In this document: piece after piece, positions 45,001 through 48,000 of the stretch
Layout: the number at the start of each line of letters is the position of its first letter
Numbering within the stretch: position 1 is the stretch's first letter
Assembly: GCF_013167455.1 (NCBI RefSeq)
Contig: NZ_CP038328.1
Direction: 5' to 3' (one strand)
Length of the DNA: 64,000 nucleotides
Source: Escherichia coli O157:H7
GTDB taxonomy: Bacteria; Pseudomonadota; Gammaproteobacteria; Enterobacterales; Enterobacteriaceae
Position numbers: made by a program

Positions 45001-48000
45001 AAGCCGAAACCGGTGGAGCCGCCTAAGCCGAAGGTTGAAGCACCACCTGCGCCGAAGCCAGAACCGAAGCCGGTCGTGGAAGAAAAAGCAGCGCCAACGG
45101 GTAAAGCCTATGTTGTGCAACTGGGCGCGCTGAAAAATGCCGATAAAGTGAATGAGATTGTCGGTAAGCTGCGCGGTGCCGGTTATCGGGTTTATACGTC
45201 GCCATCCACGCCAGTGCAGGGTAAAATTACCCGTATTCTGGTTGGGCCGGATGCCTCGAAAGATAAGCTGAAAGGTTCGCTGGGTGAGTTGAAGCAACTT
45301 TCTGGCTTAAGTGGCGTGGTAATGGGCTATACGCCGAATTAATACGGTCTTGCCTGATGCGACGCTGGCGCGTCTTATCAGGCCTACGCAGGGGTAGAAC
45401 CGTAGGTCGGATAAGGCGTTTACGCCGCATCCGACAGCCGTTGCCTGATGCGACGCTGGCGCGTCTTATCAGGCCTACGCAGGGGTAGAACCGTAGGTCG
45501 GATAAGGCATTCACGCCGCATCCGACAGGCGTTGCCTGATGCGACGCTGGTGCGTCTTATCAGGCCTACGCAGGGGTAGAACCGTAGGTCGGATAAGGCG
45601 TTCACGCCGCATCCGACAGCCGTTGCCTGATGCGACGCTGGTGCGTCTTATCAGGCCTACGCAGGGGTAGAACCGTAGGTCGGATAAGACGTTTACGCCG
45701 CATCCGACACGCATTGTCCGATGCCGCAAAGGCATAAAAAGTCGATGGCGTTGAATATTTTTTCAGCGCCATTTTTATTGATGCGCGGGAAGGAAATCCC
45801 TACGCAAACGTTTTCTTTTTCTGTTAGAATGCGCCCCGAACAGGATGACAGGGCGTAAAATCGTGGGACACATATGGTCTGGATTGATTACGCCATAATC
45901 GCGGTGATTGCTTTTTCCTCTCTGGTTAGCCTGATCCGCGGCTTTGTTCGTGAAGCGTTATCGCTGGTGACATGGGGTTGTGCTTTCTTTGTTGCCAGTC
46001 ATTACTACACTTACCTGTCAGTCTGGTTTACGGGCTTTGAAGACGAACTGGTTCGAAATGGGATTGCCATCGCGGTCCTGTTTATCGCCACCCTGATCGT
46101 TGGCGCTATCGTGAACTTCGTGATAGGCCTGCTGGTGGAGAAAACGGGGTTGTCAGGCACCGATCGGGTGCTGGGCGTCTGTTTCGGTGCATTGCGCGGT
46201 GTGTTGATTGTTGCTGCTATTCTCTTCTTTCTCGACTCCTTTACCGGGGTGTCGAAAAGCGAAGACTGGAGTAAATCACAACTGATTCCGCAGTTCAGTT
46301 TTATCATCAGATGGTTTTTTGATTATCTGCAAAGCTCGTCAAGTTTCTTGCCCAGAGCGTAAGTGCTCTGAGATGTGGCTTAACGAGGAAAAAGACGTAT
46401 GTGCGGTATTGTCGGTATCGCCGGTGTTATGCCGGTTAACCAGTCGATTTATGATGCCTTAACGGTGCTTCAGCATCGCGGTCAGGATGCCGCCGGCATC
46501 ATCACCATAGATGCCAATAACTGCTTCCGTTTGCGTAAAGCGAACGGGCTGGTGAGCGATGTATTTGAAGCTCGCCATATGCAGCGTTTGCAGGGCAATA
46601 TGGGCATTGGTCATGTGCGTTACCCTACGGCTGGCAGCTCCAGCGCCTCTGAAGCGCAGCCGTTTTACGTTAACTCTCCGTATGGCATTACGCTTGCCCA
46701 CAACGGCAATCTGACCAACGCTCACGAGTTGCGTAAAAAACTGTTTGAAGAAAAACGCCGCCACATCAACACCACTTCCGACTCGGAAATTCTGCTTAAT
46801 ATCTTCGCCAGCGAGCTGGACAACTTCCGCCACTACCCGCTTGAAGCCGACAACATTTTCGCCGCCATCGCTGCTACAAACCGCTTAATCCGCGGCGCGT
46901 ATGCCTGTGTGGCGATGATTATCGGCCACGGTATGGTTGCTTTCCGCGATCCAAACGGTATTCGTCCGCTGGTTCTGGGAAAACGTGATATTGACGAGAA
47001 CCGCACAGAATATATGGTCGCTTCCGAAAGCGTTGCGCTCGATACACTGGGCTTTGATTTCCTGCGTGACGTCGCGCCTGGCGAAGCGATTTACATCACT
47101 GAAGAAGGGCAGTTGTTTACCCGTCAATGTGCTGACAATCCGGTCAGCAATCCGTGCCTGTTTGAGTATGTATACTTTGCTCGCCCGGACTCGTTCATCG
47201 ACAAAATTTCCGTTTACAGCGCGCGTGTGAATATGGGCACGAAGCTGGGCGAGAAAATTGCCCGCGAATGGGAAGATCTGGATATCGACGTGGTGATCCC
47301 GATCCCGGAAACCTCGTGTGATATCGCGCTGGAAATTGCTCGTATTCTGGGCAAACCGTACCGCCAGGGCTTCGTTAAAAACCGCTATGTTGGCCGCACC
47401 TTCATCATGCCGGGTCAGCAGCTGCGTCGTAAGTCCGTGCGCCGTAAACTGAACGCCAACCGCGCCGAGTTCCGCGATAAAAACGTCCTGCTGGTCGACG
47501 ACTCTATCGTCCGTGGCACCACTTCTGAGCAGATTATCGAGATGGCACGCGAAGCCGGAGCGAAGAAAGTGTACCTCGCTTCTGCGGCACCGGAAATTCG
47601 CTTCCCGAACGTTTATGGTATTGATATGCCGAGCGCCACGGAACTGATCGCTCACGGTCGCGAAGTAGATGAAATTCGCCAGATCATCGGTGCTGACGGG
47701 TTGATTTTCCAGGATCTGAACGATCTGATCGAAGCCGTTCGCGCTGAAAACCCGGATATCCAGCAGTTTGAATGCTCGGTGTTCAACGGCGTCTACGTCA
47801 CCAAAGATGTTGATCAGGGCTACCTCGATTTCCTCGATACTTTACGTAATGACGACGCCAAAGCAGTGCAACGTCAGAACGAAGTGGAAAATCTCGAAAT
47901 GCATAACGAAGGATGATGCCTTCGCTCAGGGTGCCGGTCTGGCACCCTGACTTGCAACTCCCGCCGAAATCCTGCAAAGTCTGCCTGCAAGTCTGACAGG

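Follow-up and report, generated by a model that had tools for sequence, protein, structure and literature searches.

Repetitive extragenic palindromic (REP) sequences form an array between dedD and cvpA in a 64,000-nucleotide stretch of Escherichia coli O157:H7 DNA (NCBI RefSeq assembly GCF_013167455.1, contig NZ_CP038328.1), hereafter the window, and the closest described relatives of this array are bacterial interspersed mosaic elements, or BIMEs. Under the nomenclature of Gilson, Bachellier and Hofnung, BIME-2 elements alternate inverted y and z2 REPs across a short tail-to-tail linker in extragenic, multi-copy tandem arrays that have no integration host factor (IHF) site, are conserved within a locus and vary in number between strains, whereas BIME-1 elements combine z1 with y in a single copy and have a long L linker with an IHF site (PMC3333891). 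Inverted REPs (iREPs) of the z type carry TGCC|TGAT and those of the y type do not, whereas a GTAG at the 5′ end and a stem with an AA/GC mismatch mark the y REPs (Ton-Hoang et al. 2012, PMC3333891). TnpA-REP binds REPs with a 5′ GTAG and a stem mismatch, cuts iREPs at CC|T sites and can recombine BIMEs in vitro (PMC3333891). Gyrase cleavage is enriched in BIME-2 elements, mostly at y REPs and independently of transcription (PMC6379681).

A further point of comparison is REP325 of E. coli K-12 (yjdM-yjdN), a y/z2 array with a period of 100, 5.8 copies at 96% identity, and linkers of 13 nt head-to-head and 17 nt tail-to-tail. REP325 yields a ladder of hairpin-ended RNAs, imposes a partly Rho-dependent limit on transcription into the downstream gene and protects the upstream mRNA, and the model in which HU and the RNA naRNA4 compact the nucleoid was not reproduced (bioRxiv 10.64898/2026.03.23.713779).

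We show here that the dedD-cvpA array is a BIME-2. The best explanation of the locus as a whole, in which we place high confidence, is a BIME-2 array of four in-register 91-bp z2/y units in the 3′ untranslated region (UTR) of the folC-dedD transcript of O157:H7-type E. coli.

Four in-register 91-bp units between dedD and cvpA

An earlier note on the window had proposed a BIME/REP tandem array of about four near-identical 95-bp units, each containing a convergent REP pair, at 45345-45735 between dedD and cvpA. Both the array and its flanking genes were borne out, but the period was 91 bp: Tandem Repeats Finder (TRF) returned an array at 45350-45709 with 4.0 copies, 97% matches, no indels and a score of 671. 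The runner-up in the 64-kb window scored 61, making this by far the strongest tandem repeat there. Identity at lag 91 was 0.96 over 273 nt, against a window background of 0.25 (standard deviation 0.05), and the top identity elsewhere in the window at any lag of 20-300 was 0.51. The four units aligned with one another without gaps, any two of them differing by 2-6 substitutions. Four near-identical copies were thus present as claimed, but the proposed right end did not hold, as the array proper covers 45350-45713 and the extension to 45735 adds the first 11 nt of a further, incomplete unit (45714-45724) as well as a small hairpin (45721-45735). The array is composed as follows:

45350-45440, BIME-2 unit 1: Z2 45352-45387 (plus strand), linker GCAGGGGTAGAACC 45388-45401, Y 45402-45435 (minus strand; the plus strand reads GTAGGTCGGATAAGG...), then AGCCG and TT
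45441-45531, BIME-2 unit 2: Z2 45443-45478, Y 45493-45526; 3 substitutions relative to unit 1
45532-45622, BIME-2 unit 3: Z2 45534-45569, Y 45584-45617; absent from strain 111
45623-45713, BIME-2 unit 4: Z2 45625-45660, Y 45675-45708; end junction ACACGCA, not the internal ACAGCCG
45714-45724, plus strand: imperfect copy of the first 11 nt of the unit, TTGTCCGATGC, a direct repeat bounding the array

On the plus strand, each unit reads TT, the Z2 REP GCCTGATGCGACGCTGGCGCGTCTTATCAGGCCTAC, the linker GCAGGGGTAGAACC, the Y REP GTAGGTCGGATAAGGCGTTYACGCCGCATCCGAC and AGCCG. The tail-to-tail linker is 14 nt long, and AGCCG together with the next TT forms a head-to-head linker of 7 nt. The Z2 REP is written with CTAC at its 3′ end on the plus strand and the Y REP has the opposite orientation. 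The convergent pair claimed for each unit is present, as a tail-to-tail Z2 on the plus strand and Y on the minus strand, and the eight REPs follow the order Z2+ Y- Z2+ Y- Z2+ Y- Z2+ Y-. In all E. coli alleles examined, the last unit carried the ACACGCA junction.

REPs were typed, and their stem mismatches assessed, by the criteria of PMC3333891, with a Z2 consensus as one reference and, for Y, the consensus variant GTCGGAT...ATCCGAC that is proper to this locus; the eight elements showed 0-2 mismatches to these sequences. All eight end in GGCCTAC or begin with GTAGGTCGG, and the pattern GCCKGATGCGRCG was enriched in the window (27 matches versus 9.0 expected). The Y REPs read GTCGGAT-AA-GGCG...CGCC-GC-ATCCGAC and hence contain the stem mismatch, and the Z2 hairpins have an internal unpaired position in their predicted fold. 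RNA folding of the array was predicted to be far stronger than that of shuffled controls, with z = -10.5 on the plus strand and -9.5 on the minus strand. The array is extragenic: dedD stops before it at 45342, and cvpA starts after it at 45874.

The window allele was found at 99% identity or above in about 290 records; an assembly artefact was rejected, as this four-unit allele occurs, at that level of identity, in about 290 complete genomes.

A mechanical listing of open reading frames (ORFs) also returned three 43-aa ORFs on the plus strand (45357-45488, 45448-45579 and 45539-45670; MRRW[RC]VLSGLRRGRTVGRIR...), which would be small proteins encoded by the repeats. The probability of this is practically nil: the 91-nt period is not a multiple of 3, so that successive copies fall out of frame with the unit, the ORFs overlap mutually and are gone in the 0- and 1-unit alleles described below, and the REP palindromes alone account for their entire sequence. 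We rejected these ORFs as a by-product of the periodicity, and they should not be annotated as genes.

The array is a BIME-2 and not an IHF-binding BIME-1

The array combines alternating inverted z2 and y REPs, 4.0 tandem copies, short linkers (14 and 7 nt) and a varying copy number, and every REP and BIME-2 defining feature that we compared was present, the comparison covering all of them but the linker motif class (S, s, l, r). From the BIME-2 family it differs in nothing essential; it shares the alternating y/z2 arrangement, the short tail-to-tail linker, the multi-copy tandem organization conserved within the locus, the strain-variable number, the lack of an IHF site and the extragenic position, and has its own linkers, GCAGGGGTAGAACC (tail-to-tail) and AGCCGTT (head-to-head), which are unlike those of REP325.

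Binding of IHF, which the earlier note had attributed to such arrays, would imply a BIME-1 (RIB/RIP-type) element. However, no match to the IHF consensus WATCARNNNNTTR was found within 45345-45735, and IHF sites belong to the L linker of BIME-1. The lack of this consensus, together with the z2/y composition, the short linkers and the tandem copies, therefore places the array within the BIME-2 definition and outside that of BIME-1. Apart from the presence of REPs, which in both cases are in inverted orientation, nothing speaks for a BIME-1, and the array has neither z1, nor a long L linker with an IHF site, nor the single-copy state. We thus consider a BIME-1 identity extremely improbable and already refuted by the sequence.

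The REPINs of Bertels and Rainey, hairpin-forming doublets of REPs that are mobilised by REP-associated tyrosine transposases (RAYTs), offer another comparison. The tail-to-tail z2/y pair likewise forms an inverted doublet, with arms 89% complementary over 18 nt, and the 5′ GTAG and stem mismatch required by E. coli TnpA-REP are present in the dedD units. In contrast to REPINs, which are dispersed singly, the dedD units are tandemly amplified in place. The K-12 RefSeq annotation of the locus contains no REP features.

As previously claimed, the array exceeds the other REP sites of the window in size. Three of these had been cited as single REP pairs; the sites at 27039-27143 and 32486-32565 are indeed Z/Y pairs, but the one at about 35972-36025 holds a single REP. 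At 27039-27143, a Z-type REP (plus strand) and a Y-type REP (minus strand) flank an AT-rich linker of about 40 nt in a layout resembling BIME-1, and this linker contains no exact match to the IHF consensus. The single REP at 35972-36025 is of z type, in minus orientation, and is preceded by a duplicated GTAGGCCGGA / GTAGGTCGGA foot (TRF period 10).

Unit number ranges from zero to five among E. coli strains

Copy number was compared using two systematic "spread" samples of 5,426 complete genomes, which gave 115 locus rows with some records shared, so that the frequencies are estimates. Unit counts were mostly derived from match span, and 16 loci were checked directly. For the second sample, record spans came from a synthetic 12-unit query and were not ranked by unit number, as 1-unit genomes matched every query unit piecewise. 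The distribution was as follows:

0 units: 1 row (0.9%)
1 unit (including one degenerate copy): 77 rows (67%)
About 1.8 units (E2348/69-type, with a decayed second y): 3 rows (2.6%)
2 units: 2 rows (1.7%)
3 units: 14 rows (12%)
4 units: 15 rows (13%)
5 units: 3 rows (2.6%)

The expectation that copy number differs between strains was thus confirmed, with 0-5 units among the sampled complete E. coli genomes, and alleles with 0, 1, 2, 3, 4 and 5 units were each verified on individual loci. K-12 MG1655 shares the insertion site, the flanks and the z2/y unit with the window and carries exactly one unit at the orthologous site, consisting of the window's unit-1 body and unit-4 end junction; its spacer measures 258 bp versus 531 bp for the four units of the window, a difference of 3 x 91. 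The 0-unit allele, found in strain 1296KP, reads TACGGTC-TTGCCCGATGCCG, and the array is therefore bounded by the imperfect direct repeat TTGCCTGATGC / TTGYCCGATGC. Strain 111 agrees with the window at every position of its flanks (443 + 420 nt) and has an array of units 1, 2 and 4 only, which is a clean in-register loss of unit 3.

Arrays of other lineages, such as that of APEC O18, have lineage-specific substitutions that are common to their units. The flanks of APEC O18 (locus L008), WGS1363 (L005) and E2348/69 (L006) are about 94-96% identical to the window. All three have GT at unit positions 37-38, APEC O18 and WGS1363 also have CA at positions 17-18, and the units of these three strains are more mutually diverged than those of the O157 allele.

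A conserved terminator separates the array from the cvpA-purF promoter

The 1.1 kb of the window that was queried is 100% identical to E. coli O157:H7 chromosomes. Around the array, it contains the following features:

44680-45342, plus strand: dedD coding sequence, an ORF annotated as dedD in a 100%-identical O157:H7 record; stop codon TAA at 45340-45342
45721-45735, plus strand: small hairpin ATGCC-GCAAA-GGCAT, with variants in the Escherichia and Citrobacter sequences compared
45744-45780, plus strand: intrinsic-terminator-like hairpin (12 pairs, 6-nt loop; 45744-45773) followed by TTTATT, the presumed folC-dedD terminator
45802-45835, plus strand: cvpA-purF control region, with the PurR-box-like sequence ACGCAAACGTTTTCTT at 45802-45817 and the -10-like TAGAAT at 45825-45830; not part of the array
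45874-46362, plus strand: cvpA coding sequence, an ORF annotated as cvpA in the O157:H7 record

The array is thus part of the dedD 3′ UTR, and a conserved terminator downstream of it stands between it and the cvpA-purF promoter. The hairpin at 45744-45780 is the only terminator-like site in the region, and within the array no REP is followed by a T-run that would make it an intrinsic terminator. Among the matches listed, 112 Enterobacterales species loci were measurable, and 55 of these have a near-identical hairpin at 31-32 nt upstream of the PurR box; in Pantoea and Erwinia, the equivalent position holds a T-run and a hairpin whose sequence differs. It is unusual for a terminator to be conserved between genera at the level of sequence, and an overlapping upstream promoter function may be the reason.

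The PurR-box-like sequence at 45802-45817 is presumably the purF operator, reportedly described by Rolfes and Zalkin. In a pattern scan of one genome per GTDB species, which covered at least 120 loci across Enterobacterales, the operator/-10 string ACGCAAACGTTTTC-N9-TAGAATGCGCC was exactly conserved in at least 120 species, from Escherichia to Photorhabdus, Morganella and Edwardsiella. A scan of 45200-45950 for sigma-70-like promoters returned none, not even the presumed cvpA-purF promoter, and carries little weight either way.

The array could be a dedicated regulator of cvpA-purF, for instance a spacer or structural element tuning the PurR-controlled promoter, with its unit number set by selection in O157:H7. 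The PurR box follows the array at a distance of only about 90 nt, and about 290 near-identical records share the four-unit allele, which would agree with such a role. However, the array is cut off from the promoter by the terminator hairpin, whose distance to the PurR box is fixed at 31-32 nt; the 1-unit allele of K-12 and the 4-unit allele have the same promoter-proximal 130 nt, from which the 0-unit allele departs at a single base; and unit number varies even inside one haplotype. We therefore find this role very unlikely, and an effect of the array on cvpA-purF transcription, which the earlier note had raised, is doubtful given the intervening conserved terminator.

On the dedD side, 9 nt separate the stop codon from the first REP stem, which begins at 45352. 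Translation has been reported to be lowered by REPs that lie fewer than 16 nt after a stop codon (Liang, Rudd and Deutscher 2015, as summarised in PMC12306157), and with its 9-nt spacing the array is a candidate for such an effect. Within dedD, the part that encodes the proline/lysine-rich linker contains a 24-nt tandem repeat at 44985-45032 (2.0 copies, 79% matches). The coding length of the gene also varies, dedD being 12 nt shorter in some strains (651 versus 663 nt; loci L007 and L009).

The naRNA4 matches reflect REP homology

Only one Rfam family, RF02564 (naRNA4), reached its gathering score in the window. It did so at three places in the array, each a head-to-head Y/Z2 pair across a unit junction:

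45405-45475, plus strand: RF02564 match, 83.3 bits
45496-45566, plus strand: RF02564 match, 72.0 bits
45587-45657, plus strand: RF02564 match, 79.5 bits

The gathering score of naRNA4 is 59.5 bits, and the minus strand stayed below it at 50-55 bits. The RF02564 consensus matches the y + z2 unit of REP325, and the three matches arise because of the homology of Y/Z2 REP hairpins. Judged from the sequence, the Rfam matches reflect this hairpin homology and do not show a small RNA gene, for which they should not be taken as evidence.

The dedD array and REP325 agree in organization: both are y/z2 tandem arrays in the 3′ UTR of the upstream gene of a tandem gene pair, with the same REP orientation relative to the sense strand and near-identical hairpin sequences (the dedD array scoring 72-83 bits to the Rfam model). 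They differ in dimensions, REP325 having a 100-bp period, 5.8 copies (12 palindromic units) and 13/17-nt linkers versus 91 bp, 4 copies (8 units) and 7/14-nt linkers in the dedD array, and in the conserved intrinsic terminator that follows the latter.

By extension from REP325, the array could be seen as a cluster of genes for naRNA4-like, nucleoid-associated noncoding RNAs that bind HU, bridge cruciforms and condense the chromosome, as in the original HU/naRNA4 model (Qian et al. 2015, PMC4550694). The three matches above the gathering score on the dedD-sense strand fit this idea, but a BIME-2 junction is expected to score by homology alone, since the RF02564 consensus is itself a y + z2 REP pair as in REP325, and the head-to-head linker of the dedD array is 6 nt shorter than in the RF02564 model. 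No promoter-like site was found in or beside the array, a result that is little informative as the same scan missed the presumed cvpA-purF promoter. Moreover, the nucleoid function of naRNA4 is itself disputed for REP325: a 2026 preprint whose authors include the senior author of the 2015 study reported that REP325/naRNA4 affected neither the size of the nucleoid nor REP-REP contacts, and that a cell contains about 1-2 copies of the RNA (bioRxiv 10.64898/2026.03.23.713779). That preprint makes no mention of dedD or cvpA. Altogether, a nucleoid-associated RNA cluster at this locus appears highly improbable.

Proposed function and changes in unit number

By analogy with other BIME-2 arrays, from which its RNA and gyrase roles are drawn, the dedD array likely acts as a local 3′-UTR attenuator, an exonuclease barrier and a gyrase site, with a unit number that drifts by in-register recombination. 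At the RNA level, the eight hairpins would act locally, impeding 3′-to-5′ exonucleases and thereby stabilising the upstream dedD mRNA, and would cause a partial, partly Rho-dependent attenuation ahead of the real terminator. At the DNA level, the y REPs would be preferred gyrase cleavage sites, in keeping with the gyrase binding that the earlier note had ascribed to such arrays and that is documented for BIME-2 arrays generally (PMC6379681).

Unit number would change through in-register recombination between units, whether by unequal crossing-over, replication slippage or TnpA-REP strand exchange, and the latter would occur at TGCC|TGAT sites coinciding with the unit boundaries. The array was also said to be a RAYT target, which agrees with the use of BIME-2 arrays as TnpA-REP substrates in vitro (PMC3333891). 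We looked for a REP with a 5′ GTAG and a stem mismatch together with iREP CC|T motifs (TGCC|TGAT and GCC|TAC), and on the plus strand each dedD unit has a y REP with GTAG and the AA/GC mismatch and a z2 iREP with TTGCCTGAT and GGCCTAC, making it a candidate substrate.

Copy number itself is probably close to neutral. A 0-unit allele exists, the range extends over 0-5 units and a conserved terminator is present independently of the array, all of which suggests that it matters little or not at all how many units there are. Several points weigh against a role of the array as attenuator, barrier and gyrase site. Every functional step is transferred to the dedD array by analogy, and the existence of a 0-unit allele and of 0-5 units in viable strains speaks for a dispensable array. 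With the conserved intrinsic terminator already ending the transcript and protecting it, the added REP hairpins may contribute little. The effects of REPs are strongly context-dependent, and terminal REPs do not generally lengthen half-lives (bioRxiv 10.64898/2026.03.23.713779). As for the recombination step, some B2 strains are without tnpA-REP (Ton-Hoang et al., PMC3333891), and the presumed B2-type arrays sampled (e.g., APEC O18) keep 3-4 units; a RAYT may thus not be needed for the upkeep of the array.

Repeats in the dedD 3′ UTR of other genera

Among the matches listed, the stretch from the dedD stop to the terminator hairpin ranged from 26 to 493 nt across species, and the palindromic repeats it contained were specific to the genus and unrelated to one another. 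Two units were present at the dedD-cvpA site in each of E. albertii, E. whittamii and the divergent "E. coli E69", and some Citrobacter species (loci L116, L092 and L087) have REPs of their own in the dedD 3′ UTR. In Pseudocitrobacter faecalis (L044), positions 1031-1456 hold a 59-nt unit in 7.2 tandem copies (TRF score 648). Enterobacter cloacae (L017) has a perfect palindrome with a 29-bp stem (CCCTCACCCTAACCCTAACCCTCTCCCC...), and Pseudenterobacter timonensis (L071) has GGGGAGAGGG-type palindromes in its dedD 3′ UTR.

We tentatively raise the idea, which we hold to be rather unlikely, that the stretch between the dedD stop and the terminator is a repeat hotspot, where palindromic repeats of unrelated families have landed or been amplified again and again in different genera. 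If true, this would point either to a preferred target beside the terminator or to selection for a heavily structured 3′ UTR, shielding the PurR-regulated cvpA-purF promoter against read-through out of folC-dedD, and unit number would act as a lineage-specific expression dial.

Significance of the locus

The finding is already known in kind, as BIME-2 arrays, their variable copy number, gyrase binding and processing by RAYTs are long established. The correct annotation label for the locus is a BIME-2 (z2/y) array and not an IHF-binding BIME, and it has little importance beyond that. Within the family, it illustrates cleanly how a BIME-2 site can vary in number, ranging over 0-5 units and changing by single units within one haplotype, and could serve as a natural allelic series for the model in which REPs act as terminator plus stabiliser, or as a minor typing marker.

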